From a virus (lineage: Duplodnaviria; Caudoviricetes): 43,507 nucleotides of DNA. Position 1 is the stretch's first letter, and every line of letters begins with the position of its first letter. This document shows positions 23,389 to 43,507 of the stretch, piece after piece. The notes beneath the pieces were generated by a model. It was not told the origin of the DNA and did not search any database. It was given only the letters and a program-made list of their open reading frames with translations. A program made the position numbers and the translations under genes. Location of the stretch: positions 1-43,507 of IMG/VR virus record IMGVR_UViG_3300031453_000004. One strand, given 5' to 3'.

Positions 23389-23404
23389 TAAGGAGATTCA
23401 ACTC

Positions 23405-23629: not shown

Positions 23630-23662
23630 TTTGCCCGGCCGATACGAGAGGACCAGTAACTG

Positions 23663-24576: not shown

Positions 24577-24611
24577 CCATTCCGCTCTACCAACTGCATT
24601 GGGGGTTGCTG

Positions 24612-25327: not shown

Positions 25328-25343
25328 GAAGGAGCATCACATC

Positions 25344-26285: not shown

Positions 26286-26293
26286 CCCTGATC

Positions 26294-26331
26294 CTCGGCG
26301 GCGCGGTGTTGTCGGACGCCGCGCCGCCGAG
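26294..26331 (+). terminator. Long GC stem-loop after major tail gene
   Basis: CTCGGCGGCGCGG...CCGCGCCGCCGAG. Confidence 0.6.
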
Positions 26332-26374
26332 CCTTCACCCCCAATCATCCGGCAATCCGACGAAAGGCAACACC

Positions 26375-26716: not shown

Positions 26717-27093
26717 TGGGCCTGCTCGTCCACTACTGCACGGAAATTGAGTCGGACCTGTCCCGGTTTCATCACCGCGACATCGGCGACTGGTACCTCG
26801 GCGAAATGTCCTCACGCGAGCTGCTGGTCATCGTCGGCCACCTCCCGGAGGAGTCCGCGACCAAGGCGGCGATGCGGGACGACCCGTGGACAACCATGCA
26901 CCACCTGATCGCCAACGTGCAGGACGCGTTCACCTTTTACCGGGGTGACTTCGCCAAGGCCAACGGTGGGACAGCAAACCCAGAACCCATACGGCGGCCG
27001 GGCGCGGACAAGCGGGAAACAAACCGCCTTGAAGCGCAGAAATCGAAGCACCAGTCGCTGATGGCGTCCATCGGCGGAACAACGCCACAGTGA
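26701..27093 (+). CDS. Tail assembly chaperone -1 frameshift extension (GT)
   Basis: The -1 frame is open from C CCA AAC (26698-26704): KLAEVVGLL...IESDL..F...HLP..SA. Confidence 0.8.
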   Translation, partial: KLAEVVGLLVHYCTEIESDLSRFHHRDIGDWYLGEMSSRELLVIVGHLPEESATKAAMRDDPWTTMHHLIANVQDAFTFYRGDFAKANGGTANPEPIRRPGADKRETNRLEAQKSKHQSLMASIGGTTPQ

Positions 27094-27104
27094 GGAGCTG
27101 ACCA

Positions 27105-30100
27105 ATGTCTGTTGGCTCCGTGTTCGTGGACATCATCCCCCGTGTCATGGGAATGAGTGCTGCCATGACACGCGATGTGGTGGCCCCTGCCGAGGAGGGC
27201 GGTACGGAGGCCGGGCGGACGTTCTCCACGGCGTTCACCCGCTCCGTCACCGGGGGCACGTCGTCCACGGTGGCCGCGGTGCAAGCCCAGGTCCGTGCAG
27301 CACAGGCCGCGGTGGAACAGTCCTCCGTGGCTATTTCGGCGGCACGGGACAAGGAACTGGCTGCCGCGGACCGGGTGCGGATCGCGGAGACCAAGCTAGC
27401 TGAGTCGCGGGCCAAGTATGCCGCCGAGTCATCCCAGGTGGTGGCCGCCGAGGCACGCCTGGAAGCGGCGAAGCGCACCGAGGTCACCGCATCGGATCGT
27501 GTCGTGGTGGCAGAGGCCAACGAAGGCCGGGCGAAGGCCGACCTGATCGCCCGCAACGATGCCCTCGCGGTGTCCAGTGCTCGCGCTGCGGAAGCGTCCG
27601 CACGGTCCAGTGAAACTTCCGGCGCCGGCGCCCTCGCGCTGGCCGGGAAGTTCAAGACCCTTGCCCTCGGCGTGGTCGGTGTTGACGCGGTTATCGGCAT
27701 CGACGCTGTGCACCAGGCCGGTAACTACCAGCAAGCATTGACCAAGTTGGCGACCACTGCCGGTGAGTCCACCGGCAACCTGCACTTGGTTGGGCAGGGC
27801 ATGCTCGACATGGCTGGTCAGGTTGGGGTGTCCGCGCAGGACCTCGCCAAGGCCATGTACACCGTTGAATCCTCTGGGATTCATGGTGCTGACTCGCTCA
27901 TCGTCCTCAAAGCGGCAGCGCAGGGCGCGAAGCAGGAGAACGCCGACCTCACTCACGTCACCGATGCGGTAACCACCGCCCTGCACGACTACAACCTTCC
28001 TGCCTCTGACGCCGCGAAGGTCACCTCACAACTGATCACCGCTGTCTCGCACGGTAAGACCACGTTCGATGAGCTGACCGGGGCCATGCACTCGGTGACC
28101 CCGATCGCTGCGGCTGCGGGTATCTCTCTCGCCGAGGCGTCGGGCACGTTGGCGTCGATGACGGCCTCGGGCATGTCGGCGGACCAGGCGGCGCAGAACC
28201 TCGGCTCCACCATCAAAGGCTTGGCCGCCCCGACCCAGCCGGTCATCAAGGAATTGGCCGCCCTCGGGCTTAACTCGGTGGAGCTGTCGAAGAACCTCGG
28301 CAAGACCGGGGTCGCCGGCACCCTGCAAGAGGTTTCGACTGCCATTCTCGAGAAGATGGGCCCGGCGGGCACCACCCTGCTCTCCACGCTGAACCAGTCG
28401 AAACTGGCCGGTGCGGACGCAGCGAAAATGTACGACTCGATGGCTCCGCCGCTGCGCAAGGTCGCGGATGAGCTGATAAACGGGACGATCACGACCCGGC
28501 AGTTCACGCTCGGCACAGGGCATCTCGATGCCGCGTTGCAGGGCCAGGGTCGGTCGTGGCTGACGCAGTACAAGAACGCCAACGGCTTCTCGCAGGCGCT
28601 GAAGTCTGGTGGCAACGACACCCAGACCTACATGGAAGCCCTGAAGCGGGCCACGGGCACCACAGATGGCATGGCGGTGGCCCTACAGGTCACCGGCGAG
28701 CACGCGGACGCCACGAACGCCGCTATCAAGGACATCGCCAACGCCGTTCCCGAGGCTGACGGCAGCATCAAGGGCTGGTCTGAGGTTCAGGGGAACTTCA
28801 ACCAGAAGCTTTCTGAAGTGGTCGCCGGCATCAAGTCCTGGGTCATCGAACTCGGGCAGAAGCTTCTCCCTGCAGCGACCTCGTTCCTGTCGCTGTTGGT
28901 GTCGTCCGCGTCGTGGATGGGTGAGCATTCCCGGCTGATCGGTGAGATCGCTAAGTGGGTCGGGATCGCCGTGGGCGCTTTCGTGGCGTGGCGGGTGGCG
29001 ATGGTTGCGGGCCAAGCGGTCACGGTCGCATGGGGTGTCATGATGGGCATCTTCAACGGCACCATCACCGCCGGAACTATCGCTACCAAACTCGCCGCCG
29101 CCGGGCAATGGTTGTGGAACGTGGCCCTCGACGCCAACCCGGTCGGCCTCGTTATTGTCGCGATCGGCGCACTAGTGGCCGGGGTTATCTACGCCTACAC
29201 CCACTTCGAGGGCTTCCGCAACGTCATCACCGACGTGTGGAAGTGGATGAAGGACTTTGCGTCGTGGATCCTTGGCGATGCGAAAGCAATGTGGCACGCA
29301 CTGGGCACAGGGTGGGATGCGGTTGTCGGTGCGTGGAAAGCTGTCGTGGCTGATGGCCAGGCCATGTGGCACGCGCTGATCACTGGGTGGAATGCCCTAA
29401 AAGACGCCACGGGCGCGGTTATCAAGTACCTGGTCGATGCGTGGAATTCCTTCACGCACGCGCTGTCCACCGGGTGGAACGAAGGTATTAAGCCCGTTCT
29501 AGTTTGGGTCGGCAACGCTTTCGAGCTGGTCGGTAAGATCATCTTCGCGGTGGTCGGTACCGTCATCTTAGCTCAGTTCCGCCTGTTCATGAACGTCGTG
29601 CACGCCTTGTGGAACGACGCAGTCCATCCAGTCCTCGGCTGGATCGGCGACAGGTTCCACTGGCTGTACGACAGCGTGATTATGCCCGTGATCGGCTTCA
29701 TCAATGATGCGATCACCGCGTGGGGCACTGCAATGCGCTGGCTGCACGACAACGTGACCAAGCCTGTGTTTGACGCCATCGCCGCAGCTTGGCATTGGGT
29801 CTACGACATGGCCGTCAAGGTTGTGACTGATCTAATTAACGATGCCATCCGAGGCTGGGCAACCACGATTACGTGGCTGCACGACAACGTGATAAAGCCG
29901 GTCTTTGGCTTTATCTCGGATGCGTGGCACTGGCTGTACGACACGGCCGTCAAGGTTGTTACCGACCTGATCAACGATTCGATCCGCGGTTGGGCGGCCA
30001 CAACCACCTGGATCCACGACAACGTGATCGTGCCCGTGTTCAACGCGATCTCCGACACATTCCACTGGATCTACGAGCAGGTCATCAAGCCGATCATCGG

Positions 30101-31937
30101 TTTCATCAAGGACGAGATCACCGGCTGGGCCAATATCATGCACTGGCTGTACGACAATGTCATCAAGCCGGTGTTCGATGCTGTCGGGTCAATTATCCGC
30201 ACCACCTATGACGACGTGATTCACCCAGCGTTCGAGGCACTGAAAACTGGCGTCCACGACGTCGGGGAAACCTTCGACACCGTTGTTACGGCCATCGGCA
30301 AGATATGGGACAAGCTCAAAGAGCTGGTTGCGATCCCGATCAACTTCGTCATCAACACCGTCCTGAATGACGGTCTGTTCAAGGCGTGGGACGACGTGGC
30401 TGGGCTCGTCGGTTTGCCGAAGGCACCGCACATCGACCCGGTGAAGTTCGCTGATGGTGGCGTCATGCCCGGTTACACACCGGGCCACGACGTGCACCAG
30501 TTCGTGTCTCCCACCGGGGGCCGTTTGGAGTTGTCTGGCGGTGAAGCCATCATGCGCCCGGAGTGGACAAAGGCTGTGGGTGGTCCAGGGGCTGTTGCGG
30601 AGATGAACCGCGCCGCACGAGCGGGCACGATGGCGGCGTTCGCCAATGGCGGTGTCACTAGCTTCGCTGATGGTGGTGTCACCTGGCCCGCCATGCTCAG
30701 CATCATCCAGGGCCAATTCCCCTGGGCGCTTGACAACTCCGACGTGCGTCCCGGCGACCCCGGTTACCACGGCAAGGGTGAAGCCCTCGACGTCGGAGCC
30801 CCCGGCGACAACCCCGCGCAGTTGGCTCAGGTGGCCGCCTGGATCGGCTCCAACTACTCCAACTCCACCGAGCTGATCCACAACCCAAACGGTTCCATCA
30901 AGTTCGGAAAGTCTGTGCCACCGTCGTTCTGGGGTGCGGAGACGTGGTCGCAACACGCCAACCATGTGCACTGGGCCAACGACCGCGACCCGCACCTGAA
31001 CAGCGGAAACCTTCTCGGCACCATCGGCAGTGAAATTTCCAGCGCCGCGGGGGCTGTCACCCACTTCCTGCGCGACCAGGTTGGGCGCATTTTTGACGGC
31101 ATCATGAGCCCCATCGGCGGACTGATCGACACGACGTTCGGGAAGCCACCACCGCAGATCAAGGGCTTACCGCGTGGGTTGTTCGACAAGACGGTCGGCA
31201 AGGTGCATGACTTCATCGTCGGCAAAGCGGACGCGAAGGATGCCGCAAGCAGTGGTGGTGGGTCGGCCACCCTCGGTCCTCTAGGTGGTAACGCCACCGC
31301 CTACGCACGGGAGATCAATCGCTCGGCCATGGAGCACGGCTTCGGCAAAGAGGGCTCTATCATTGGTATTGCCACCGGCATGGTCGAAACCAATCTGCGG
31401 GAGTACGCCAACTCGAATGTTCCAGCATCGCTAAGTTTCCCGCACGACGCGGTGGGTTCGGACCACGACTCCGTAGGTATCTTCCAGCAGCGCCCGTCCT
31501 GGGGTTCGCTGGACCAACTGATGAACCCACACGCCTCGGCTGACCTGTTCTTCAACCGGCTCGGCTCATTCGACTGGCGGTCGATGGACCCCGGCGCTGC
31601 TGCGCAACGCGTGCAGGTTTCGGCGTTCCCCGGCGCCTACTCAGGTCGGATGGGTGACGCACGAGCATTGGCCGACACCTTCGACGGCGGTGGGCTGGCT
31701 CTCGGTCGGGGCCTGATGGCGAAGGAAACCATCGTGCCTGAGCGGATGCTGTCCCCGCGGCAGACCGAGGCGTTCGAGCGGCTGGTGCCGATGCTGTCCG
31801 CGCTACCCCCGGCTGGGGACACCACTACAACCAGCAACGGCCCGCACATCGAGCAGCACATCTACCCGCGGGCCGGTCAGTCGGAGGCACAGATCGCCGC
31901 CGACGTTGAGCGGCGCCTCCTGTTTGCGATGCGTTAG
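27105..31937 (+). CDS. Tape measure protein with C-terminal cell-wall hydrolase-like domains
   Basis: 1610 aa, Ala-rich, TP901-type core, periodic Trp repeats; YHGKGEALD...HANHVH and VETNL...SVGIFQQRPSWG. Confidence 0.95.
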   Translation: MSVGSVFVDIIPRVMGMSAAMTRDVVAPAEEGGTEAGRTFSTAFTRSVTGGTSSTVAAVQAQVRAAQAAVEQSSVAISAARDKELAAADRVRIAETKLAESRAKYAAESSQVVAAEARLEAAKRTEVTASDRVVVAEANEGRAKADLIARNDALAVSSARAAEASARSSETSGAGALALAGKFKTLALGVVGVDAVIGIDAVHQAGNYQQALTKLATTAGESTGNLHLVGQGMLDMAGQVGVSAQDLAKAMYTVESSGIHGADSLIVLKAAAQGAKQENADLTHVTDAVTTALHDYNLPASDAAKVTSQLITAVSHGKTTFDELTGAMHSVTPIAAAAGISLAEASGTLASMTASGMSADQAAQNLGSTIKGLAAPTQPVIKELAALGLNSVELSKNLGKTGVAGTLQEVSTAILEKMGPAGTTLLSTLNQSKLAGADAAKMYDSMAPPLRKVADELINGTITTRQFTLGTGHLDAALQGQGRSWLTQYKNANGFSQALKSGGNDTQTYMEALKRATGTTDGMAVALQVTGEHADATNAAIKDIANAVPEADGSIKGWSEVQGNFNQKLSEVVAGIKSWVIELGQKLLPAATSFLSLLVSSASWMGEHSRLIGEIAKWVGIAVGAFVAWRVAMVAGQAVTVAWGVMMGIFNGTITAGTIATKLAAAGQWLWNVALDANPVGLVIVAIGALVAGVIYAYTHFEGFRNVITDVWKWMKDFASWILGDAKAMWHALGTGWDAVVGAWKAVVADGQAMWHALITGWNALKDATGAVIKYLVDAWNSFTHALSTGWNEGIKPVLVWVGNAFELVGKIIFAVVGTVILAQFRLFMNVVHALWNDAVHPVLGWIGDRFHWLYDSVIMPVIGFINDAITAWGTAMRWLHDNVTKPVFDAIAAAWHWVYDMAVKVVTDLINDAIRGWATTITWLHDNVIKPVFGFISDAWHWLYDTAVKVVTDLINDSIRGWAATTTWIHDNVIVPVFNAISDTFHWIYEQVIKPIIGFIKDEITGWANIMHWLYDNVIKPVFDAVGSIIRTTYDDVIHPAFEALKTGVHDVGETFDTVVTAIGKIWDKLKELVAIPINFVINTVLNDGLFKAWDDVAGLVGLPKAPHIDPVKFADGGVMPGYTPGHDVHQFVSPTGGRLELSGGEAIMRPEWTKAVGGPGAVAEMNRAARAGTMAAFANGGVTSFADGGVTWPAMLSIIQGQFPWALDNSDVRPGDPGYHGKGEALDVGAPGDNPAQLAQVAAWIGSNYSNSTELIHNPNGSIKFGKSVPPSFWGAETWSQHANHVHWANDRDPHLNSGNLLGTIGSEISSAAGAVTHFLRDQVGRIFDGIMSPIGGLIDTTFGKPPPQIKGLPRGLFDKTVGKVHDFIVGKADAKDAASSGGGSATLGPLGGNATAYAREINRSAMEHGFGKEGSIIGIATGMVETNLREYANSNVPASLSFPHDAVGSDHDSVGIFQQRPSWGSLDQLMNPHASADLFFNRLGSFDWRSMDPGAAAQRVQVSAFPGAYSGRMGDARALADTFDGGGLALGRGLMAKETIVPERMLSPRQTEAFERLVPMLSALPPAGDTTTTSNGPHIEQHIYPRAGQSEAQIAADVERRLLFAMR

Positions 31938-31948
31938 GAGGTGATCCT

Positions 31949-32851
31949 ATGGCGGTAGCAGACCGCATCGTCACTCTCGCTGGGGTGCAGTTCTTGGCGT
32001 ATGACACACCCGACTCCAGCGGGGTGTCGAGGATTGCCACCGAGCTCGGTGGCTGGCTTGGCACCCCCAAGCTACGGACCAGCTACACGCCGCTGCCGTT
32101 CGCTGCGGGCAGTATCTACAGCCCCGCATATGCGGATCACAGGGTTCTCGTGCTGGATGGGGAGATCATCACCACCGATCCGGCCACGTTGAGTCGGGCG
32201 CTCCGCGCCTTGAACGGGCTGTGCAGTCAACCGGAGCAGTTGTACACGCTGCAGGTCGATGACTCAGCCGGGTCGCTGTTCTGCCTGGTGCAACGTTCCA
32301 CTGAAATTTTGGCCAAGTCGGGAGACGGCCTGGTGGCGCAATTCTCGGTGTCGTTGACGGCCCCGGACCCCCGCCTGTTGGACGTCACTTTGCAGTCGGC
32401 GACCACGCAGATGGCGCAGCCGGGCAATGGTGGGGTGCCGTGGAACGGTCCGCCTCCGGGCACCACCGGCACCCAGTGGAACGGGCCGACAGGCACCACG
32501 GGCCTCGCCTACGGGCAGCCTGGCCCCAGTGGCATTGTGACCGTCGACAACACGGCGGGTACCGCCCCCGCTGATGTGCTGCTCACCATTCAAGGCCCAG
32601 CGACGAACCCTACTCTGATCACCACCGCCGGGGTCATCGTGTACGGCGGCACCTTGTCTGCTTCGGATGTGTTGGTCATCAACACCGGCACAGGTTCGGT
32701 ACTGCTGAATGGCGCCAACCGCCGCAATTTGTTGACGAGGGCGGGGTTCTTCCAAATCCCGGCCGGTCAAACGTTGGGTATCTCATTCTCCGCTGACCTG
32801 CAGAACAACACCGCCACCCTCACCGCCCAGTGGCGGACCTCGTACCTCTAG
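31949..32851 (+). CDS. Distal tail protein (Dit-like)
   Basis: Follows TMP; LTAPDPR, I.GPATNP. Confidence 0.8.
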   Translation: MAVADRIVTLAGVQFLAYDTPDSSGVSRIATELGGWLGTPKLRTSYTPLPFAAGSIYSPAYADHRVLVLDGEIITTDPATLSRALRALNGLCSQPEQLYTLQVDDSAGSLFCLVQRSTEILAKSGDGLVAQFSVSLTAPDPRLLDVTLQSATTQMAQPGNGGVPWNGPPPGTTGTQWNGPTGTTGLAYGQPGPSGIVTVDNTAGTAPADVLLTIQGPATNPTLITTAGVIVYGGTLSASDVLVINTGTGSVLLNGANRRNLLTRAGFFQIPAGQTLGISFSADLQNNTATLTAQWRTSYL

Positions 32852-32860
32852 GAGACCTCA

Positions 32861-34000
32861 ATGGCCGTTGCCCTCTCTAACGGACTCCCGCTAACTGGGG
32901 CCGATGGCTCGACCGGTCGCAATAACGGCAGGGACATCCGCAAGGGTCTCCTGTCGTCGCTGCTGTTGCCGGACACGAAGTCGAACCCGTTGGCGGTCCG
33001 CAACGGGGTCCTCAGCCATGACTACGACAGTGGTGGGGTCAAGTCGCTACGGGTGGACCAAACCGGCACGGCCAGCGCGCAGGTCATCATCCAACCGGGC
33101 GCTTTCGTCAGTGAGCGGGCAGGGCAAGGGCCTTACATCGGGTGGGGGGAAACCAGTGCCGGGGTGTTGCTCACCCCACCCACCTCCAACTCGACCAACC
33201 CCCGCATCGACGTCGTGTACGCCCAAGTACTGGACAAGGCCAGCATCAGTCTCGACCCGTCCACGGACGCCATCGTGGATGTGGTAATAGGGGTGCCATC
33301 GGCGACCCCAGCGGCCCCAGCGGTCACCGCCGATGGTGCTGTGATCCTGGCCCAGCTGTACCGCCCGGCAGGCTCCACCACCATCACTCAGGCGAACATC
33401 ACCGACGTGCGCCGCTCTACCGGCCTGGTGGGGACGATCCGGCGCCTGCTGCCCGGCGACTTCCTGTCCGACCCGGGGAAGGTCGACGGCGAATTACGCT
33501 ACCGGCAAGCTGTTGGTGGGTTGCCGTCGTTGGTGGACTACTGGGACGCCGGGCAGGGGGTGTGGCGGGGCACGCAGAGCTTCGCCCTGGCCGGTGCGTG
33601 GCCCACCACCACGTTCGGTGGTATCGCTGTCAGCGTCAGCGGTACGCAGGTCACCTACACCGGTGTGAACAGCGCCGGGAATATTCCCATTTCGGTAAGC
33701 ATCCCCGACCCCGGCTGGCCTTACCGGGTGCAGGCATCCACAGGCTTTACGCTCGCCAGCGTCAGCGTAGCCAACACATACCTTAACTCGTACGTCAGCG
33801 TCAACAGCAACCTCTTTGCGGGTAGCTACTCGTCAACCGGCAACCCTCAGGTCCTCTCTATCGTGCCTGTCGGAAACGCGATTTACACAGGACCCTCTAC
33901 GGCTCGCCTTTACTGGGATGTTGTCGGGTCCGGTGGCGGATCGGTGAGTATCAACATCGACACCCGCAACAACTTGATGATCCAGGTCGTGCCGGCCTGA
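32861..34000 (+). CDS. Minor tail protein
   Basis: NPRIDVVYAQV.D...G.PSATP.AP...LAQ...ITD.R. Confidence 0.75.
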   Translation: MAVALSNGLPLTGADGSTGRNNGRDIRKGLLSSLLLPDTKSNPLAVRNGVLSHDYDSGGVKSLRVDQTGTASAQVIIQPGAFVSERAGQGPYIGWGETSAGVLLTPPTSNSTNPRIDVVYAQVLDKASISLDPSTDAIVDVVIGVPSATPAAPAVTADGAVILAQLYRPAGSTTITQANITDVRRSTGLVGTIRRLLPGDFLSDPGKVDGELRYRQAVGGLPSLVDYWDAGQGVWRGTQSFALAGAWPTTTFGGIAVSVSGTQVTYTGVNSAGNIPISVSIPDPGWPYRVQASTGFTLASVSVANTYLNSYVSVNSNLFAGSYSSTGNPQVLSIVPVGNAIYTGPSTARLYWDVVGSGGGSVSINIDTRNNLMIQVVPA

Positions 34001-35205
34001 TGGTCGCGTACCGGTTGGCGGTGGCGAACACCATCTCCGGGCAGATCGTTGGCGACCTCCCCTATGTCACGACCCCCACATGGGGGCGGGTGCTGAACGG
34101 CTCCGGTTCCTTGTCTGGTGTTGCGGTGCCGTTGAACCCGACACAGTTGGACGCGGACATGGCCCAGCGTTTGCGGGAGCCGTGGCGGTGGACGATCCTC
34201 TGGGCCTACGGCAATGTCATCCTGCAAGCTGGCATCCTGTCCTCGATCACGGTGGACGACACGCAGAAACCCTCGGTGGCGTCGTTGGCGACTACCACCG
34301 TGTGGGAGTTCCTGACCCGCAAACGCCTCGTGGTCACCCCCGGTCAGGACATTGGTACCGACGCCGCGAACGTCGTTTTCTCCCCTACCGCACCGGACAC
34401 CGCGAACCGGAACCTGTCGCTGCACTCCATCGCCCGGCGCCTGGTGGAACTAGCCACCGTCAACACCGACCCCACCTACCAACTGCCGCTCGTCCTGCCC
34501 GACACCATCGGCGGCACCAACGTTCGCACTTACTTAGGATCGGATTTGGCCACGACAGGCACCCGACTGTCGGAGCTCACCCAAGTCATCAACGGGCCCG
34601 AGATCGAGTTCGCCCCCGAGTTCAACGACTCCACGCAGGGCTATTTCCGGTGGCGAATGCGGATCGGCAACAACAGGCTCGGGCAGTTGGGATTCCCCCA
34701 CGCCTGGGACTACCAGAGGGCTCTGCTGTCCCTGTCCACGGGCATCGACGGGACCGACATGACCTTCAACGTCACCAGCAAGGGCCAGGACACGAGGACG
34801 GTTTCCTCGGCCACACCCCCCGTGGCTTCCGGTGCCCTGATCTCCGCAGCAGCCTCGGACACCACCTACACGGGGCAGGGGTGGCCGGCGTTGCAAACCG
34901 CGGACACCGGGCATACCTCCACCATCGACACTGCCACCGTCGCGGGGTACGCCACTGCTGCGGTCACCACCCACCGGGTGCCGATCAAAACGGCCACCGC
35001 CCGTATCAGCATCAACGGGTTGGACAATCAGGGCCGGCAGACCGGGGCACCCTCCATCGACCTGATCGCGGTGGGCGACACAGCGTTCGTCGGCCTCGTG
35101 GGGCACCCGTTCCTGCCCGACGGCCAGTACGGCCTGCGGATACTCACCCTGGAGTCTGGGCCTGATGCTTTCACGGCGAAGATGGTTGTGCAGGTACTGA
35201 TGTGA
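34000..35205 (+). CDS. Minor tail / baseplate hub (Tal-like)
   Basis: LN.SGS, L.EL....NGPEIEF.P; synteny. Confidence 0.75.
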   Translation: MVAYRLAVANTISGQIVGDLPYVTTPTWGRVLNGSGSLSGVAVPLNPTQLDADMAQRLREPWRWTILWAYGNVILQAGILSSITVDDTQKPSVASLATTTVWEFLTRKRLVVTPGQDIGTDAANVVFSPTAPDTANRNLSLHSIARRLVELATVNTDPTYQLPLVLPDTIGGTNVRTYLGSDLATTGTRLSELTQVINGPEIEFAPEFNDSTQGYFRWRMRIGNNRLGQLGFPHAWDYQRALLSLSTGIDGTDMTFNVTSKGQDTRTVSSATPPVASGALISAAASDTTYTGQGWPALQTADTGHTSTIDTATVAGYATAAVTTHRVPIKTATARISINGLDNQGRQTGAPSIDLIAVGDTAFVGLVGHPFLPDGQYGLRILTLESGPDAFTAKMVVQVLM

Positions 35206-35702
35206 GTGCCCCCGATCAGTACCCACAGCTGCCCCCTGGTGTTGCCCCGTACGTCGCTGGCATCGCGTCGGAGTTCGCGGCGATCCGGCACGACGCGGAG
35301 GAAGCGGGGCGGCGGTCTCCGCCGGTCATCAGCTTTCCTCCGTTCCCGGTGGTCCCTGCGTCGTCGCCACCGGAAACGCAGTCCATCCTTGCCCCCGGTG
35401 CGGGGTGGTCGAACTACGGCGGCGGCCTCCAACAACTCGGCTACGAGCTGATAGGTACACGGGTGTTCCTCCGCGGTGTCCTCACCAACACCACGGCCAT
35501 CACCAACGGGGGACCGTCCATCATGTTCACGATGCCCGCCGGGCTGATACCTGCTGTCACGGAAATATTCGCCACGGTGGGTGGATCCAACGCCATCTAC
35601 CGGGTGGACGTCAACTCCAACGGGACCGTGGACGTGATCGGCAACCTCCCGCTCAGCAACTTCGTCACCCTGTCCGGCATCACCTACTCGACGCTTGCCT
35701 AG
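35202..35702 (+). CDS. Minor tail protein (receptor-binding-like C-terminus)
   Basis: GW.NY...V.LRG...FTMPAG..P...LSGITY. Confidence 0.7.
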   Translation: MSAPDQYPQLPPGVAPYVAGIASEFAAIRHDAEEAGRRSPPVISFPPFPVVPASSPPETQSILAPGAGWSNYGGGLQQLGYELIGTRVFLRGVLTNTTAITNGGPSIMFTMPAGLIPAVTEIFATVGGSNAIYRVDVNSNGTVDVIGNLPLSNFVTLSGITYSTLA

Positions 35703-35712
35703 GAGGCGGGTC

Positions 35713-35916
35713 ATGGTCATCACCCTCACTGTCCCCGACCAGCTAGTTCCCCGTGTGGTCAACGCTTTGTGTGACGTCGGTGGGCACTCCACGGTGAACG
35801 CCGCCAACGCGAAAAGCACGCTGCTGGACATCATCACGCAGATGGTGCAGTCCGTGGAGTCCCGGGCGGCGATGACACCACCAACGCCGGTGGCGCCGAT
35901 CACCGGCCTGTCCTAA
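35713..35916 (+). CDS. Small hypothetical protein
   Basis: AGGAGG RBS. Confidence 0.6.
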   Translation: MVITLTVPDQLVPRVVNALCDVGGHSTVNAANAKSTLLDIITQMVQSVESRAAMTPPTPVAPITGLS

Positions 35917-35952
35917 CCCCCCCGTTTCACCACTGTGACGTTTGGAGACCCC

Positions 35953-36936
35953 ATGCCCGACTGCCTCTTCGCCGACGTATCGTATTTTCAAGCCAAGGTG
36001 GACGACTCCTACCCTCACCGGGTGTTGTCGATCCGCTCCAACGACGGCACGTTCCGTGACCCCAACTTTTCCCACAACTACCAGTGGTGCGTGAACGCCG
36101 TTGCAGGCGGCCGTCTGGACTGCTTCATTGTGTACGCCTACTGGCGGCCGAACTGGGAGGCCACCGCGAACACGATGCGCGACATGGTGAACGCCGAAGG
36201 TGGGCCGCACCCCCGCATGGTGGCAATGGTCGACCTCGAATCCGGTGGTAACCCTGGCGGGGATCAGTCGGGGGGTGTCAACGCGTGGTGCGACAACATC
36301 GCCGCCTGGTTGGGCACTCCGAGCGGTGGTGGTCGGGTCATCGGTTACGGCGGTGTGTATGACCTTCGGAGCATGTGGCCGAATCGGCCCGCGGGGATGC
36401 GGATGGTCATCGCCGGGTACGGCGGGGCATCTCCGATGGGGTTCCCCGGTTTCCTCGCCCACCAGTACACCGATGGTGGTGGGTACGGTGCCCCAGCACC
36501 CCAGGGTTGCCCACCGTTCGGGAACTGCGACATGAACTCCGCTGACGGTATCGATGCCGCGGGGTTCTGCGCCGCTGTGGGCCTCGGTGCAGCATCCGCC
36601 CCGATGGTCGGTGGGGCGATCGGCGACCTGTACAACACCCTCGGCGGGCCAGGTGGCCTGCTGGGCAATCCCACGACCCCAGAAACCAGCTGCCCCGATG
36701 GGGTTGGTCGGTACAACCATTTCGACCGCGGCTCCATCTACTGGACTCCCACCACGGGGGCGCATGAGGTCATCGGGTCGATCCGCGACACCTGGCAGGC
36801 ACAGGGCTGGGAAACCGGCAAATGGGGCTACCCCATCAGCAACGAGATCGGTTGCTCGGAGGGTGCCCACCAGTACTTCCAAGGGTCCGCGGTGTTCTGG
36901 CGGGCCTTCAACAACAAGATCACGGAGCTGAGCTGA
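35953..36936 (+). CDS. Endolysin: GH25-like muramidase plus LGFP repeats
   Basis: ADVSYFQ, MVDLESGGN, HQYTDG, CDMN; LG.P...E...GRYNHF..GSIYW.P.TGAH repeats. Confidence 0.88.
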   Translation: MPDCLFADVSYFQAKVDDSYPHRVLSIRSNDGTFRDPNFSHNYQWCVNAVAGGRLDCFIVYAYWRPNWEATANTMRDMVNAEGGPHPRMVAMVDLESGGNPGGDQSGGVNAWCDNIAAWLGTPSGGGRVIGYGGVYDLRSMWPNRPAGMRMVIAGYGGASPMGFPGFLAHQYTDGGGYGAPAPQGCPPFGNCDMNSADGIDAAGFCAAVGLGAASAPMVGGAIGDLYNTLGGPGGLLGNPTTPETSCPDGVGRYNHFDRGSIYWTPTTGAHEVIGSIRDTWQAQGWETGKWGYPISNEIGCSEGAHQYFQGSAVFWRAFNNKITELS

Positions 36937-36937
36937 C

Positions 36938-37381
36938 ATGAGCGCAACACCAATTTCGTGGTCGAACCCGGCCGAAGCCTTGAAAGCGATCACTTCCGGA
37001 ATTGTGACCTTCGTCGGGGCGGTGACGCTTTCCCTGTCCACGAACCCTGGCAACACCGCACCGACATTGGTGCAGTGGTTGATCGCCGGCATCTTCGGAT
37101 TGGGTGCCCTGGTCACCACGTACTACGTGCCCAACGCCAACGCCAAGCAGAAAGCGGTCATCGCGGATGCCGAGAAGGTCGCGGTGGACTTGGTAGAACA
37201 TAATCCGCAGCAGGCCATTGTGGATGTTACACAGGCCGTGATGGCAGCCAACTACCTGCAGCGGGCAGCGGCGCAGGCTGTGCCTGTGGTGGTCAACGTG
37301 ACACCCAAACCCGCCTACACGGGTCCGATCCCGCCTGTCTCCGAGCCCGTGGGAGCGACCGCAGTCAGCGCCGCACCGTGA
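36938..37381 (+). CDS. Holin
   Basis: Two TM segments ending TYYVPN; follows the endolysin. Confidence 0.75.
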   Translation: MSATPISWSNPAEALKAITSGIVTFVGAVTLSLSTNPGNTAPTLVQWLIAGIFGLGALVTTYYVPNANAKQKAVIADAEKVAVDLVEHNPQQAIVDVTQAVMAANYLQRAAAQAVPVVVNVTPKPAYTGPIPPVSEPVGATAVSAAP

Positions 37382-37875
37382 GAAGGGCGCGGTTGCGTTT
37401 CATTGAGCATCCCCATCTGTGGATTAAACGCCGACCCGCCAAACTCGGCAGGCGCGGAACTGTGCTGCTGATTCTCGGTGTCATCTGGTTTTTTATCGGC
37501 ATCTCCACCATCGCCGACCCCTACGCCTCGGGTGGCCGTAACCTGGGCTTGTTCCACGAAGCTCTGCCGTCGTGGTTGCGGGCCACCTTGTGGATCGGGA
37601 CCGCCCTGCTCGCCCTGTCCTCGGCGTGGCGGGTCGCCGGGCGCCGCGACGATTGGGGGTTCATGGGCCTGATCTTGATGCCCACCGTCCGGGCAATGTC
37701 CTACCTGTGGGCGTGGCTGGTCGACCTGTTCGACGGCAAGGGTGATCCCACGGGGTGGTTGGGGTTCATCGTGTGGGGCACCGTCACGGTCCTCGTGTAC
37801 ACCATCTCGGGGTGGCCGGAGACACCGAAGTTCGTGCCCCCCGAAACAGAGGCGGCAGCGCATGATAACGACTGA
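37378..37875 (+). CDS. Four-TM membrane protein (lysis cassette)
   Basis: Four hydrophobic segments; GTGA coupled. Confidence 0.75.
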   Translation: MRRARLRFIEHPHLWIKRRPAKLGRRGTVLLILGVIWFFIGISTIADPYASGGRNLGLFHEALPSWLRATLWIGTALLALSSAWRVAGRRDDWGFMGLILMPTVRAMSYLWAWLVDLFDGKGDPTGWLGFIVWGTVTVLVYTISGWPETPKFVPPETEAAAHDND

Positions 37876-38299
37876 GCTTATCAGTGCCGGTGGTGGTGTC
37901 GCAGCGGCGGCCATCGCCGCCCTCGCCGTCCGGCACACCGGCCTCCAAGCACGCATCGCCAACCGTGTCACCCGCGACGAGGACCAGGCGGTCATCGTCT
38001 CCCACGACGACGTGCAACGCCGCCGCGATGTGGTGGAGTCCTGGGAATCGTTCACCGTCACCCTGCAGAAGCAGATGACAGCGCTGGACGAGAAGATAGC
38101 TGGGCTGGACGTGAAGATAGCTGCGCAGGCCGACAAGATCGCCGAAGTCGGCCGCAAACTGGACCGGGCTGGGCGCACCCTGACCGCGGCCATCGCCTAC
38201 ATCGAACGTTTGCTGGACTTCATCAGCGCGCAACTGCCGGACCACCCGAACGTGCCGCAAATGCCCGCTGAGGTCCGCCAACAGATGCACGAGCAGTAG
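37862..38299 (+). CDS. Membrane-anchored coiled-coil protein (lysis cassette)
   Basis: N-terminal hydrophobic stretch and heptad repeat. Confidence 0.7.
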   Translation: MITTELISAGGGVAAAAIAALAVRHTGLQARIANRVTRDEDQAVIVSHDDVQRRRDVVESWESFTVTLQKQMTALDEKIAGLDVKIAAQADKIAEVGRKLDRAGRTLTAAIAYIERLLDFISAQLPDHPNVPQMPAEVRQQMHEQ

Positions 38300-38308
38300 G
38301 AGACCCCT

Positions 38309-38644
38309 GTGACCACACCCCTCACCCTCGGTGCAGCCCCAGGACCGTTGTCCGTGATCCTCACCCCCGGTGCCGCGTTCACCGCCGAAATCGACGCCGT
38401 ACTGAACGGCACCCCGTACACATGGCCGGTAGGGACGACTGCTCGTCTGGTGTTCGAGCGCGGTGATGTGACATCACAAACCTGGGCGGGTGTGGTGGTG
38501 GGGTCGGCCATCACGTTCACCGCCACCCAAGTGATGAGCGACGGGGTCCCGGACGGTTCCCACGCCCGGCTGTACCTGAACACCAGCGGCGGGGTAACCG
38601 GGGAGTTCCTGTGGTTGGCGGGGTCGGTGAGCAAGAGTGGTTAG
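38309..38644 (+). CDS. Tail-associated protein (LtfC-like)
   Basis: AGGAG RBS; L..G..F...WP.GT...W....V.GS...F. Confidence 0.6.
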   Translation: MTTPLTLGAAPGPLSVILTPGAAFTAEIDAVLNGTPYTWPVGTTARLVFERGDVTSQTWAGVVVGSAITFTATQVMSDGVPDGSHARLYLNTSGGVTGEFLWLAGSVSKSG

Positions 38645-38969
38645 CATCGCCCCCGGTGTCACCGTCCAGGTCACACCGCCCAGCCGCCCCGCTGTGGTCG
38701 TGGCACCCCCTGCGGCGTCGGTGGTGCAGGTCGCGCCCATCGTCGGCCCACGCGGCCCTGTTGGCCCACCAGGCGGCAGCGGGTTCAGCTACGTGCAAAC
38801 CACCCCGGCAGCGTCGTGGCCCGTCATCCACAACCTGGGCCGCTACCCCTACGCCGTGACCATCAAAGTTGGTGGCTCACTGCAGTTCACCGACGTGGAC
38901 TTCCCCGACCTCAACACAGTGGTCCTTACGTTCGCTACGCCGACCGCCGGTCGCGTCGACATCATCTAG
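38637..38969 (+). CDS. Tail fibre-associated protein with short collagen-like segment
   Basis: GPRGPVGPPG; W.VIHNLGRYP. Confidence 0.7.
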   Translation: MVSIAPGVTVQVTPPSRPAVVVAPPAASVVQVAPIVGPRGPVGPPGGSGFSYVQTTPAASWPVIHNLGRYPYAVTIKVGGSLQFTDVDFPDLNTVVLTFATPTAGRVDII

Positions 38970-38979
38970 AAGGAGCATC

Positions 38980-39768
38980 ATGGCAACCAGGTTCGGTAAC
39001 GGCATCGATCTTGCTTCGCAGCGTGTCCAGAACATCGGCGATCCCTCCACCGCGCAGGACGCCGCCAGCAAGAACTACGTCGACAACATCGCCAGGGGTT
39101 TGACCTGGAAACAGGCCGCACGAGCTGGGTCCACCGGCAACGTGTCGCTGACCGCACCGGGCACCGTCATCGACGGGGTAACCCTGGCCGTCAACGACCG
39201 CATCCTGCTGATGAACCAGACCACCGCCAGCCAAAACGGCCTGTGGGTGTTCCAGGGTTCCGCAGGGGCGTTGACCCGCCCCAACGACTACGCCGCGGCC
39301 AGTGTGCAACCAGCAGGCAGCGCAGCCACCATCACCGAGGGCACCGCCAACAACGACAAGACTTTCCTCGTCGCCTCGGACGGTTCGATCACGGTGGACA
39401 CCACGGCCACCACGTGGGCGCAACTCGGCGGCGGCGGAACCATGTACACCGCTGGTTCCGGTTTGCAGCTCGCAGCCGGTGCATTCAGCGTCGTCGCCGG
39501 TAACGGCATCCTCGCGGACGGCACCAGCACCCGTGTCGACCCCACCGTCGTGGTCCGCAAATATGCGGCGAACATCGGGGACGGCACCACCACCGCCATC
39601 GTCGTCACCCACGGTCTCGCCACCTCCGATGTGACGGTCACCGTGTTCGACATCGCCTCAGGGAACAACGAGATCCCCGACATCAACCACACCTCGACGG
39701 GCACGGTCACCATCACCTACGCGGTGGCACCGGCGTCGGCGTCGAAGCGCGTTATCTGCGCTGGCTGA
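38980..39768 (+). CDS. Tail fibre-like protein
   Basis: AAGGAG RBS; DP..AQDAASKNYVD trimer neck motif; DRILL.NQT..SQNG.W. Confidence 0.75.
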   Translation: MATRFGNGIDLASQRVQNIGDPSTAQDAASKNYVDNIARGLTWKQAARAGSTGNVSLTAPGTVIDGVTLAVNDRILLMNQTTASQNGLWVFQGSAGALTRPNDYAAASVQPAGSAATITEGTANNDKTFLVASDGSITVDTTATTWAQLGGGGTMYTAGSGLQLAAGAFSVVAGNGILADGTSTRVDPTVVVRKYAANIGDGTTTAIVVTHGLATSDVTVTVFDIASGNNEIPDINHTSTGTVTITYAVAPASASKRVICAG

Positions 39769-40136
39769 TGCAGAGGCTTGTGGGGCTGACCCCCGCCGCT
39801 ACCACAGACGCCGCCACGAAGGCCTACGTGGATGCCCCACCGGTCGCTGCCATCACCTTCGCTGCGACGATCACCCCGGCGGTGAGCAGCAGTGCGTTCA
39901 TCGCGGCGACGGGCAGCTTCACCCTGAACGCCCCCGCGAGCAGCGGCGACGGGATGATGATGCTGCTCGAGGTACGGGCTTCGGCGGCGGTCACGGTGAC
40001 CTTCGCTGCTGCCATCTTCCTCACCACGGGGCAAACCGCGTCGTTGGCGCTCACATCAGGGCACAGCGGGTTCGTCGGGTTGCGGTACTCCACCACAGCT
40101 ACGGCGTGGTACCTGCTCGCCGCGACGGCAGGCTGA
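39768..40136 (+). CDS. Tail fibre-associated protein
   Basis: DAATKAYVD; TGATG coupled. Confidence 0.65.
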   Translation: MQRLVGLTPAATTDAATKAYVDAPPVAAITFAATITPAVSSSAFIAATGSFTLNAPASSGDGMMMLLEVRASAAVTVTFAAAIFLTTGQTASLALTSGHSGFVGLRYSTTATAWYLLAATAG

Positions 40137-40137
40137 C

Positions 40138-40881
40138 GTGCCAATCGCCTTCGTCAAGAACGTCGGCAGTCTTGCAACGAAAACGTCTGGCACCGTTTTC
40201 TCGATCACGGTCCCCGCCGCCGGGGTCGCTGCGGGGAGCCGTGTCATCTGCCGGATTGCGACAAACATCGGCGTGTCCACCGCCACGATCACGGGGGCGG
40301 ACACAAGAGGAAACACCTACGCCAAGGACAATCTCAACGGATTAGACCCCAACACTCCTGTGCGATTCACGTTCGTGGTCTCTGCGCACATAGCAACCGC
40401 GCTGGTCTCCGGTGACACGATCACCCTGACCGTCAGCACAGCTTCCAGTGCTACCGTCCTGGTAATTGATGAGTTCACGGGGATACAGCCGACCAGCCCT
40501 TACACCACGCCTCTCGACTCCCGAGGCGATATTGTCACGAACGTCACGACCCCAGTGCCTCTGTACACGACCACGGTCGGTGACCTGCTGGCACTGACAA
40601 CATGCTCGAGCTCGTATGGCGTAACATTTACGTTCAACGCCGGATGGACGGTTCTGACCAGTGCAGTCACTTCGGGTGGGGGGTCGGCCACCAACCGTGA
40701 TATTTACGGTGCCTGGCAGTTGGCCACCTCGACCGGAAGCACGGCAGCAGTCACATCCTGCACGCCCACACCCTCTGCCGCTACCTACCATTACGAATGT
40801 CTGTTCGGTTACTTGGCGGCATCCGCCGTCACTCCGCCGTCTGCATCACAACCTGTAGGCCAGTTCCTCCCGTTCTTCTAA
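40138..40881 (+). CDS. Thr/Ser-rich beta protein (putative virion/receptor-binding)
   Basis: 247-aa ORF, last late gene. Confidence 0.65.
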   Translation: MPIAFVKNVGSLATKTSGTVFSITVPAAGVAAGSRVICRIATNIGVSTATITGADTRGNTYAKDNLNGLDPNTPVRFTFVVSAHIATALVSGDTITLTVSTASSATVLVIDEFTGIQPTSPYTTPLDSRGDIVTNVTTPVPLYTTTVGDLLALTTCSSSYGVTFTFNAGWTVLTSAVTSGGGSATNRDIYGAWQLATSTGSTAAVTSCTPTPSAATYHYECLFGYLAASAVTPPSASQPVGQFLPFF

Positions 40882-40894
40882 CCCCCTGCTCACT

Positions 40895-40925
40895 GCCCCT
40901 CGTCTGCCCCGGCAGGCGGGGGGCC
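40895..40925. terminator. Stem-loop between convergent late and int-side operons
   Basis: GCCCCTCGTCTGCC-cc-GGCAGGCGGGGGGC, with G-U pairs. Confidence 0.6.
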
Positions 40926-40946
40926 ATCGGTGTCTGCGGGGGTCAG

Positions 40947-41483
40947 TCACTCGTGCATGGCCATGCACTCGCCGCGCTGCTCGTTGGCATTGCCGCTGGC
41001 GATGATCAACACATCCTTGATGGAGCCGATCGGATCGGGCACGTTGAACTCGTGGCCCGTCATCCCCTCAGTGATCGTCGCCTCCCGGCCAAAGAAGGGT
41101 GCAGTTCCGTCCGTGTGGTCAATCACGTATGCGACGGTCTGCACCGCATGGGCGAACACCTGAATATCCGTGCCGCCACGAGAGTCGCCGTTGCTCTTAC
41201 CGGCGACGTAGAACGCTGCCGCGGCCGTGCAGTTCGGCACCGGCTGTCCCGGCTGCCAGGGCACACCCAGTGCGTAGGTTGTTGGCTCGGCTGAGGTCGG
41301 CGCCGCTGCCTGTTGAGTCGCCGGGGTTGCTGTAGGCGTCGTTGGACCGGCCGCCGGGGTGCTCGGCTTACCGCCACCGCTGGCAACCGAAACGATCACC
41401 AAGACGACGAACAGCAGGAGCACTACCCCGACGATGGGTAGCAGTTTGCCCCGCTTTTTCTTCGCGTGCGGCTGCTTGGTCAT
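40947..41483 (-). CDS. Membrane-anchored exported protein (candidate superinfection exclusion)
   Basis: KKKRGK + TM + Pro/Thr/Ala linker + domain with two Cys; GGGGAG RBS. Confidence 0.75.
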   Translation of the reverse strand: MTKQPHAKKKRGKLLPIVGVVLLLFVVLVIVSVASGGGKPSTPAAGPTTPTATPATQQAAAPTSAEPTTYALGVPWQPGQPVPNCTAAAAFYVAGKSNGDSRGGTDIQVFAHAVQTVAYVIDHTDGTAPFFGREATITEGMTGHEFNVPDPIGSIKDVLIIASGNANEQRGECMAMHE

Positions 41484-41550
41484 GATCTCCCCTTCGCTGT
41501 GTTTGCGTGTGCGGTGTTAGTGGTCGATGCGTCAGCGTGTACCTGATCGG

Positions 41551-42387
41551 TCACGCCGCCTTTAATGTGCGCCCCAGCCGCTCCGACGTTCTGCTCGCGG
41601 CCTTCGTGTTCGCCGCCACGTACCCGGCGGTGGTGTTCGGGGAACCATGACCCATCAACTCCTGCAGCTCCCGCAGATCCTTGCTCAGCGCGTACATCCG
41701 CGACCCATACCGGTGGCGCAAGGTGTGGCCGGTCCACGGCATCCCCAGGCCGTGCAGATGGTCGGCCACCACGATCGTCACCCTGTGCGCCGTGAGCGTG
41801 CGACCCGTCGCAGGGTTCGTGAACAGAGCCCCCCGGTGGCCCATGAGGGGGCGCAACAATCCGATCACTTGTGAGGGCACCGGCACCAGGCGCTCTTTGT
41901 CGCCCTTGCCGTGCACCAGCAGGGTCCACCGCTTGCCGTCCTCCGCGAAGTCCTCGCACTGCACGGCGGCGACTTCCGCGGCCCGCAACCCCAGGAACGC
42001 CATGCACACCATCCACAGGTACATCTGCCCGGTGGCACAGGACAACGCCAACCGCAGATCATCTTCGGGGATCGGGCGGGGTTTGCGGTGCGGTAATTTC
42101 GGCATCGGCAGTTTGGTCGCGGGGGAGCGGGGGAGCATGTCGTCGTCTGCTGCCCAGGAGTAGAAGGCCCGGACGTGGCTGGTGTAGGTGCCGAGGGCGG
42201 ACAGGGACACCCCGAGCGAGGCTTGCCACGCGGTCAACTCCTCAGGGGTGGCTTCCAGTAGAGGGTGGGACAGCCACAAGCTGAGGCGACGTAGTACCCC
42301 TTCACGGTCGAACATGCTGCGCGGTGACAGGCCGCGGCGGCGCATGTGATCCAGGTGACGGAGGACTACCTGCTCGGGCATGATCAT
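41551..42387 (-). CDS. int: Tyrosine integrase (278 aa, no arm-binding domain, C-terminal AA)
   Basis: GLRAAE, HGKGDKER, HTLRH, MGH...TAGY catalytic residues; start at MIMPEQ assumed. Confidence 0.92.
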   Translation of the reverse strand: MIMPEQVVLRHLDHMRRRGLSPRSMFDREGVLRRLSLWLSHPLLEATPEELTAWQASLGVSLSALGTYTSHVRAFYSWAADDDMLPRSPATKLPMPKLPHRKPRPIPEDDLRLALSCATGQMYLWMVCMAFLGLRAAEVAAVQCEDFAEDGKRWTLLVHGKGDKERLVPVPSQVIGLLRPLMGHRGALFTNPATGRTLTAHRVTIVVADHLHGLGMPWTGHTLRHRYGSRMYALSKDLRELQELMGHGSPNTTAGYVAANTKAASRTSERLGRTLKAA

Positions 42388-42458
42388 TGGTTTACTCTTT
42401 GTGTTGCTAAGATCACAAGAGGCAATGTTGCGTTGGCGTACGGTAGTGGTGCGGTTGG

Positions 42459-42555
42459 TTACGCGGCGCACGGCATGAGCGCCTCGTGCAGGACGCGGAC
42501 CGGGGGGAATGTACATAACGTGACGTCTTTTCGGAGAACAGTATCGTGAGTATGT
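42459..42555 (-). other. Detached 3' end of the repressor gene (encodes [31 protein letters not shown])
   Basis: In frame with the repressor through the att core when attP is reconstructed. Confidence 0.8.
42544..42555 (+). repeat. attR core TCGTGAGTATGT
   Basis: Direct repeat of 256-267; overlaps GTG-AGT-ATG of the host gene. Confidence 0.9.
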
Positions 42556-43507
42556 TTACCGAGACCTTGTACCGCACCGCGGCGACCAGCACCCATGGCA
42601 TGGTCACCGGTGAGCCCGACGCACCCGTGCGGACGAGCTGGCACGAGGTACACCAGCAGGCCCGAAAGATGGCCGGCGCGTTGGCCGCCGCGGGAATCGG
42701 ACCCGGCGACGCGGTCACGGTGCTGGCCGGTGCACCCGTGGACATTGCTCCTGCCATCCAGGCGGCGTGGATGCTCGGCGCCAGCATCACCATGCTGCAC
42801 CAGCCAACGCCCCGCACCGACCTCGGCGTGTGGGCTCAGGAGACGCTCACGACCTTGCGGGTGGTCTCCGCCAGTGTGGTCGTCGTTGGCGAACCGTTCG
42901 ACGCGGTGAAGCCGGTGCTGGAAGAGAATGACATCACCGTCCTGGAGATGGGTGAGCTCAAGCAGGGCACCGAAATCGAACCGGTAGAGGTCGGCGAGGA
43001 GGAAACGGCGCTGCTGCAGCTGACCTCCGGGTCCACGGGTCACCCGAAGGCGGTGCGGATCACCCACGGCAACCTGGCGGCGAACATCGAGGGAATGGTG
43101 CAGGCGGGTGACATCAAGGCCGAGACTGATGTCGCCGTCAGCTGGTTGCCATTGTTTCACGACATGGGCATGGTCGGCTTCCTCACCCTGCCGATGCAGC
43201 GGGGCGCGGAGCTCGTGACGGTGACGCCGATGGACTTCCTACGGTCGCCGATGCTGTGGATGCAGCTGATCAACAAGTACGGGGGAAGCCTCACCGCGGC
43301 ACCGAACTTCGCCTACGCCGTCATCGCCAAGCGGCTGGCTCGTTGGGATCCTGCCACCGACGGTGCGCTGGACCTGTCCACCCTGCGCTTCGCGCTCAAC
43401 GGCGCCGAGCCGATCGACCCGGTGTCGGTGCGCGCGTTCACCGATGCCGCCGGCCGTTTCGGCTTCAAGCCCGGCTCATTCGTCGGCGCCTACGGCATGG
43501 CCGAGGT
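42546..43507 (+). CDS. Fatty acyl-AMP ligase (host; start GTG 42546 or ATG 42552; truncated by window edge)
   Basis: [44 protein letters not shown]. Confidence 0.9.

Follow-up and report, generated by a model that had tools for sequence, protein, structure and literature searches.

An attachment core over the start codon of a FAAL-like gene matches a predicted FdmR operator

BPs, Brujita and Charlie integrate at attB sites that are tRNA genes. tRNA attB sites are also given for the MabB and MabK prophages (PMC8092301). At the M. abscessus sites attB-12 and attB-13, integration-dependent-immunity prophages were described in which host bases at attL create a stop codon (Dedrick et al. 2021, PMC8092301); the sections of that paper on attachment cores place MabC and MabN prophages at attB-13 and attB-12 and MabO at attB-14, and give the attB-13 core, over a fatty acyl-CoA reductase gene, as TACTCGTGAGTAAGAACT. 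Other elements also integrate at the 5' end of a gene. An IME targeting dusA supplies a promoter there, with weaker dusA expression measured, and SXT at prfC is cited in the same text as a 5'-end promoter replacement (bioRxiv 10.1101/2021.06.18.448947), while the relevant section of Abad et al. 2023 (PMC10654092) places M. abscessus attB-29 on a start site. On the host side, Rv0238 is FdmR, described in PMC12403877 (citing Dong et al. 2021) as a long-chain acyl-CoA-responsive repressor of fatty-acid degradation genes. Its ChIP-seq motif, AtCTTACTccggAGTAAGaT, is reported with four peaks (Rv0238, Rv0243, Rv3029c, and Rv3139) and was built on three to four peaks with weak E-values of 0.2 to 21 (Minch et al. 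2015, PMC4301838).

Here we analyzed a 43,507-nt stretch of DNA ("the window"), IMG/VR record IMGVR_UViG_3300031453_000004. In the layout described for BPs, Brujita and Charlie (Broussard and Hatfull 2013, PMC3694055), as in the window, rep and int run leftwards and cro rightwards, attP lies in rep, and Rep and Int carry tags; unlike theirs, the window attB is the start of a protein gene and a predicted operator, not a tRNA 3' end. With MabC, MabN and MabO, as the relevant sections of PMC8092301 describe them, the window shares a short non-tRNA core over a host gene start or RBS, an attL stop formed by host bases, and an integrase that is 38 to 42% identical. It differs in its host lineage, in its target gene (a Pks16-like FAAL) and in its Rep and Int, both of which end in -AA, whereas the Mab counterparts are without ssrA tags in those sections. 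An earlier sequence-only reading had known such immunity systems from tRNA attB sites only and had put this one forward as a candidate undescribed system; this does not stand, since the start-codon layout was reported for attB-12 and attB-13 (Dedrick et al. 2021). The layout is already published, and what is new is the core's match to a predicted FdmR operator, which the earlier reading had missed.

Attachment sites and the immunity module

The features of the prophage and of its immunity module are as follows.

1..156, minus strand: host prfC (release factor 3), 5' end; in the empty site this gene and the FAAL gene are divergent
252..545, minus strand: immunity repressor, prophage form, 97 aa with the tag removed; Phage_CI_repr and HTH_3 above cut-off; phrog_2328
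256..267: attL common core, 12 bp; the shared stretch opens with base 1 of the 6-bp TAC-N6-GTA spacer
256..42555: 42.3-kb prophage that encodes terminase, portal, capsid, tape measure and endolysin
654..854, plus strand: Cro-like HTH gene, divergent from the repressor; Pfam HTH_17
41551..42381, minus strand: tyrosine integrase, 276 aa, ending in -LKAA, an ssrA-like tag
42459..42543, minus strand: 3' remnant of the repressor; the circular form adds a tail ending in -PCAA, for 124 aa in total
42544..42555: attR common core; predicted operator broken (5 of 10 positions mismatched); junction bridged by an X2 contig

The 12-mer TCGTGAGTATGT is the longest exact repeat common to the two ends of the window and occurs only twice in it, at 256 to 267 and at 42544 to 42555. 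In an empty allele of the same species from a metagenome (L133), both host flanks are unbroken, with 99.2% identity over 1,219 nt. The repeats and the uninterrupted allele bear out the earlier proposal of an att core over the GTG of the FAAL gene, and both the att anatomy and the host -10 stand far above chance level. L133 holds a divergent prfC, a 552-aa ligase and a convergent pth, an order that we take to be the neighborhood of Pks16/Rv1013. The prfC fragment has a weak Pfam GTP_EFTU match, below cut-off; a full RF3 ORF occupies the same place in L133, and an RF3 match was found in 63 of 110 ortholog loci. An assembly artifact was ruled out, as the attR junction is bridged in X2 and L133 is collinear. 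In Logan contigs, host letters precede 42544 in 7 of 7 distinct runs, and an X3 contig tracks the phage arm as far as the final base of the core, then runs on for 194 more letters, which would fit the attP form.

The core overlaps a protein start codon and no tRNA gene. The GTG lies in the 6-bp spacer, and the FAAL ORF therefore stays whole: as the earlier reading had it, the ORF is intact and restorable, with the GTG in the core and the 5' end complete at attR. In a host strain represented by the run X18 contig, which ends at window position 42547, an ATG replaces the GTG in the spacer. This change keeps a start codon and the predicted box and should mismatch the phage overlap, possibly making it an integration-resistant allele.

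No FAAL-flanked prophage was found in the viral contigs searched, and the exact attB pattern had no match in genome contigs; its eight matches in metagenome contigs were the window's own record, L133 and six unrelated chance hits. A search for related int/rep pairs at prfC-FAAL, which had been proposed with the earlier reading, thus returned no second prophage at this FAAL site, and conservation of the phage-side SD was assessable on close variants only.

The attP core lies inside the repressor ORF. In the viral form the repressor stop ends at 42459; at attL a TAA made of host bases 254 to 252 shortens the repressor from 124 to 97 aa. C-terminal tags resembling ssrA, judged from sequence only, are present on the viral Rep (-PCAA) and on Int (-LKAA); rep and int are co-oriented, cro is divergent, and the tyrosine integrase is short. 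We conclude that the window likely holds an integration-dependent-immunity prophage in which integration stabilizes the repressor. The earlier reading had arrived at the same system, which is supported here by attP in rep, truncation at attL, the C-terminal tags and the rep-int/cro layout. The host half-site TTAC supplies the TAA that removes the repressor's -AA tail, and this also fixes the orientation of integration, because the other half-site (AGTAT) gives no stop. At 258 to 323 on the plus strand, the host GTG at attL opens a 21-codon ORF antisense to the repressor gene's 3' end.

A single integrase sequence, searched against genome and viral contigs, brought up distant matches only, and an alignment search recovered relatives. 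The closest annotated relatives are the MabN, MabC and MabO integrases and that of phage Whack. Of the 535 phage records that the integrase matched, the best 14 all belong to M. abscessus phages or prophages (39 to 42% identity), and those of the 14 entered in Table 1 and the Table S2 rows of Dedrick et al. are MabC or MabN. In five host-arm/phage-arm pairs, two of which use empty sites of genome G170 instead of a true attL, the repressor strand reads TAA or TAG in the host arm and neither of these in the phage arm. The phage arms of L150, L147 and L092 differ by one base that turns TAA into TAT, so that the box is nearly rebuilt. For the window and for L143, the two partners become identical precisely at base 1 of the 6-bp spacer; this points to an overlap of 6 bp.

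The core as a predicted FdmR operator and the attB sites of related integrases

252..265: FdmR-type operator TTACT-CGTG-AGTAT, predicted; agrees with the consensus at 9 of 10 positions; complete at both attB and attL

The attB and attL of the window match 9 of 10 core positions of the operator motif (10 of 12 with flanks), and attR and attP match 5 of 10. Read on the minus strand, the left arm of the operator is the repressor's TAA. On this comparison, the attB core appears to match the predicted operator of the acyl-CoA-sensing repressor FdmR (Rv0238).

In five genomes, exact TTACT-N4-AGTAA occurred at 21 sites, compared to 4 for a reversed control. By our own reading of translations, 14 of 18 fetched palindrome sites adjoin lipid genes (thiolase/reductase, desaturase, acyl-CoA dehydrogenase, enoyl-CoA hydratase, thioesterase and SDR genes) or the regulator; most gene names at the 18 sites are our assumption, and the neighbor gene at L314 had no NCBIfam match. 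The published cores of attB-12 and attB-13 are found at L314 and L317, and the L305 regulator shares its first residues with the Rv0238 of Minch et al. 2015. L147, L305, L308, L311, L314 and L317 come from the unpublished genome G170; when it is left out, the published cores together with G022, G046, G171, G172 and G178 give the same conclusion.

The nearest relative, G022, has DNA collinear with the empty site. It encodes an Rv0238-like TetR protein (47%) with a perfect box 55 bp upstream, and seven of its sites match with at most one mismatch (two in the control), six of which adjoin acyl-CoA genes or regulators. The AGTAT variant is also found at an acyl-CoA dehydrogenase site of G022. When five relatives were queried with FdmR, the regulator was found in G022 and G046 and not in G001 or G014; the bare 8-position palindrome occurred five times in G022 (three in the control) and five times in G046 (none in the control). 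At L303/L374 of G046, two tandem boxes lie at a thiolase gene, the second over an in-frame ATG, so that a box on a start codon also occurs among natural regulon sites.

In the portions of PMC4301838 and PMC12403877 on the FdmR regulon, CTTACT-N4-AGTAAG lies at the fadA2, fixA and fadE24 promoters, and the same genes carry the palindrome in G022. A Pks16-like FAAL is not among the four ChIP peaks given in PMC4301838. The cores of attB-12, of attB-13 and of attB-14 read TACT-N4-AGTA, and that of attB-13 shares the 12 bases TACTCGTGAGTA with window positions 253 to 264; the sections of PMC8092301 on cores do not identify them as FdmR operators. We found no report of phage use of an FdmR operator as attB among the listed papers on FdmR, attB operators and integration-dependent immunity that are available without subscription, judged largely by title or opening of the abstract.

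The attB sites of the integrase clade appear, from these comparisons, to be copies of CTTACT-N4-AGTAAG beside lipid genes in Mycobacterium and Rhodococcus. When loci with less than 130 nt upstream of int were left out, 16 of 32 close loci had a box with at most one mismatch 50 to 330 nt upstream of int (these 16 are for the most part redundant records of the M. abscessus group), as against 0 of 99 distant loci. A quick tree built on 73 chosen rows grouped the 20 box-labeled rows, without exception, within one 33-row clade (SH-aLRT 91). Lipid neighbors of related integrases comprise an attB-13-type SDR (L146, L147 and L251), a 664-aa reductase (L141), an acyl-CoA dehydrogenase (L144) and a thiolase (L150); the L221 neighbor is, judging by its N-terminus, presumably an acyl-CoA dehydrogenase. 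The Rhodococcus prophage L150/L344 has a perfect box next to the thiolase gene as its attB, and its attP falls within its own repressor; at the level of sequence, it is an independent full case of the predicted box as attB.

There were exceptions. L143, a Whack-like prophage, lies beside a GNAT gene and uses a second palindrome, AACCTAC-N6-GTAGGTT, as attB; the GTAG of this palindrome supplies a TAG stop. Four copies occur in G174 (none in the control) and adjoin what we take to be two desaturase-like genes, one acyltransferase-like gene and one other locus. The second palindrome was seen in the Whack-like lineage at L335/L363 (G174), L090 (phage Whack) and L278; its owner is a candidate FasR-like protein, and Rv0472c was rejected as owner because its ChIP motif differs. 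L224 (G177) is a clade member with no box, lying upstream of what is presumably groES with a CIRCE-like repeat. No core was found for L142, L145, L148, L149, L151 and L215, nor a box in L142, L145 and L148; the attL sites of L141 and L144 were not found in the 78 kb and 74 kb examined. No tRNA genes were present in the 8-kb-scale flanks of L141 to L144, L146, L147 and L149 to L151, and those near L145 and L148 are distant, about 2.5 kb from int. At L236, L241 and L242, two back-to-back integrase genes have a palindromic core between them, which suggests that one prophage entered the att site of another in inverted orientation, or else a join made in assembly.

The FAAL-like gene and its native promoter

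245..250, plus strand: host -10 hexamer TATGAT of a predicted leaderless promoter, 7 nt before GTG 258 in attB; remains at attL in the lysogen
42546..43507, plus strand: host Pks16-like FAAL-family ligase; 5' end intact, cut by the window end; Pfam AMP-binding

The ligase is 552 aa at full length in L133. It scored 825.9 bits against NCBIfam PRK07768 (cut-off, 572), a subfamily that NCBIfam calls a CoA ligase. The best PDB matches are FAALs, led by E. coli FAAL 3pbk (1.5e-59), and by our own reading the alignment to 3pbk runs through the FAAL-type helix and insertion regions. The ligase is thus FAAL-like by homology and appears closer to FAALs than to FACLs. No adjacent PKS or ACP partner was found in L133, and the envelope or receptor role that had been proposed for the gene is left with FAAL-like homology and no tie to the envelope. 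Polar effects were ruled out, as the convergent pth follows the gene.

The GTG aligns with the start codon in 80 of 80 orthologous loci, 78 of which have an SD and 2 of which have TANNNT 7 to 8 nt upstream. A later start, whether at the ATG two codons downstream or beyond it, was rejected: orthologs start at the GTG position, and X18 has ATG there. The closest prfC-syntenic orthologs (L094, L095, L001 and L122) have TANNNT-N7/8-GTG and no SD in 4 of 4 cases, and this layout makes a native leaderless FAAL promoter likely. The arrangement TATGAT-N7-GTG noted in the earlier reading was confirmed, with TATGAT 7 nt before GTG 258, and so was its view of a leaderless host promoter that ends up 42 kb away, since TATGAT stays at attL and the syntenic orthologs are alike. 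A scan with the sigma-70 consensus, which is ill-suited to actinobacterial TANNNT promoters, gave nothing at either end of the window.

Control of the gene after integration

We consider it reasonably probable that the integrase recombines at a TAC-N6-GTA palindrome matching the predicted FdmR operator over the leaderless FAAL start, and that integration likely stabilizes the repressor and likely uncouples the FAAL gene from its own promoter and operator. FdmR would be expected to bind this particular attB site. In the lysogen, the gene loses its -10 and the predicted operator, attR keeping the right half only, and the host -10 and the whole box stay behind at attL, pointing antisense into rep, towards cro. 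Synthesis of the ligase would then depend on a weak promoter in the phage arm and on the GGAG, at a reduced level insensitive to acyl-CoA, and excision would restore native control. The clade may use these operators for their conserved AT-rich inverted repeats, right spacer and built-in stop codon. Integration at a gene 5' end with expression signals supplied by the element is shared with the dusA IME, SXT and attB-29, as the sources above describe them; these change the N-terminus or are without a tie to repressor truncation, whereas the FAAL protein of the window is unchanged.

An unlikely competitor is that the attB is a neutral landing pad. Here the integrase's preference resembles FdmR boxes and the FAAL site is no working operator; the promoter is removed, FAAL is near-silent, and the host tolerates this. 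The premise is that, in GC-rich genomes, such palindromes come chiefly from FdmR boxes. Of 115 ortholog loci, only two carried a box at the FAAL start (L133 with one mismatch and L094 with two), and it was absent there from the closest genus sample (L095, L001 and L122); the predicted box at this start is lineage-specific. Part of the match is forced by the coding of GTG-AGT, the phage-side SD and -10 candidates described below are at chance level, and FAAL is monocistronic, so that its loss carries no polar cost. Arguing the other way, 9 of 10 positions match, and they do so where a repressor classically sits, over the predicted +1; the AGTAT variant recurs at the G022 acyl-CoA dehydrogenase site; and -10 and box are retained in a diverged relative (Logan contigs, 90 differences in 639 nt).

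The phage arm at attR holds three candidate expression signals.

42405..42413, plus strand: candidate extended -10 TGC-TAAGAT (TGCTAAGAT), a weak candidate from the earlier reading
42516..42521, plus strand: alternative -10 candidate TAACGT, 24 nt before the GTG; one of four TANNNT in the arm, within chance
42533..42537, plus strand: weak SD-like GGAGA, 8 nt before GTG 42546

The sequence-only reading had located the GGAGA and the TGCTAAGAT element correctly, including the 8-nt spacing. It had placed both within the repressor-tail codons, which holds for the SD; the -10 lies beyond the viral stop, in the rep-int spacer. It further proposed that a selected phage promoter and SD control FAAL and alter envelope lipids or receptors, as lysogenic conversion or active lysogeny. 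This we find improbable, although GGAG is at a usable spacing, GGAGA-type leaders occur in natural orthologs (e.g., L099 and L041), TGnTANNNT occurs only twice on the window plus strand, attB-13-type arms do rebuild a leaderless -10 (TACGGT-N8-GTG), and the dusA and prfC elements supply new promoters. The SD duplex, computed against the anti-SD motif, comes to -6.6 kcal/mol; 78 of 80 ortholog leaders are stronger, and 8.8% of 1,125 phage positions reach this value (background, 8 to 9%). The arm has four TANNNT, and 61% of 2,000 shuffles have two or more; the extended -10 is present in 17% of arm shuffles, and the G of its TG (42406) is altered or deleted in 2 of 2 variant contigs covering it. 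L150 has a similar GAGAAC stretch about 24 nt further from the core, too far for an SD, and no PKS or ACP partner lies near the FAAL gene. The closer variant keeps the -10 hexamer and the SD, the latter being the element whose conservation that reading had proposed to check; it differs at only 7 of 273 positions, so their retention says little. A dedicated phage promoter and SD were therefore not upheld. TAACGT, by its position, would yield a short leader holding the GGAG.

Most relatives' arms rebuild the box with one mismatch, whereas the window phage, whose arm has diverged, breaks it (5 of 10). Mab arms rebuild both a -10 and a 1-mismatch box, and the window arm rebuilds neither. In the attB-13-type arms (L146, L147 and L251), TACGGT lies 8 nt before the GTG, matching the TACAGT-N8-GTG of the empty paralog site L317. 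The arms of L146, L147, L251 and L091 rebuild a leaderless -10 (TACGGT-N8 or TAGATT-N7) together with a 1-mismatch box. The rebuilt -10 may answer how MAB_3947 is transcribed in attB-13-type lysogens.

That the site is instead an operator of FasR (Rv3208) or another TetR paralog, in which case the regulatory sign could be activation, is very improbable: TAC-N6-GTA boxes are present in the FasR co-crystal oligonucleotide given in PMC7382501, G022 has a 1-mismatch box at its FasR-like gene, and the Whack-type lineage uses the second palindrome, but the TTACT/AGTAA flanks and the target genes match the Rv0238 ChIP-seq motif and peaks, and the position over +1 fits a repressor.

Under the preferred reading, recombination at an FdmR operator, lipid status might, given the placement of the box, steer integration and excision. 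A stronger form, tentative and in our view doubtful, is that FdmR, seated on attB and attL, keeps the integrase out until it is displaced by long-chain acyl-CoA. Since integration is required for immunity, lipid status would thereby decide between lysis and lysogeny, and release would fire the stranded promoter antisense through rep towards cro, inducing the prophage and restoring FAAL. If this is true, a clade of Mycobacteriales temperate phages reads the host's fatty-acid state through its attachment site. One rule, operators of a fatty-acid repressor, would cover puzzling non-tRNA attB sites that include three published M. abscessus sites, and the operator itself would write the stop codon that activates the phage repressor. 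The match raises two questions: do prophages split operators and thereby rewire lipid genes, and is site-specific recombination, and with it lysogeny, gated by a metabolic repressor of the host? Vectors that integrate through these sites would land on lipid-gene promoters.

Four further features of the window were observed. Just downstream of int, at 40947 to 41483 on the minus strand, a 178-aa ORF encodes a membrane-anchored, Pro/Thr-rich protein with no Pfam or PHROG match, possibly a lysogeny-expressed surface protein judging from its sequence. A 386-aa ORF at 12528 to 13688 on the minus strand runs against its neighbors' direction, has no Pfam or PHROG match and may be a shadow frame or an accessory gene. 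A 12-bp tandem array lies at 1253 to 1552, inside a DUF6197 gene (915 to 1640), and a C5 cytosine methyltransferase is encoded in the early region at 8892 to 9677 on the plus strand.
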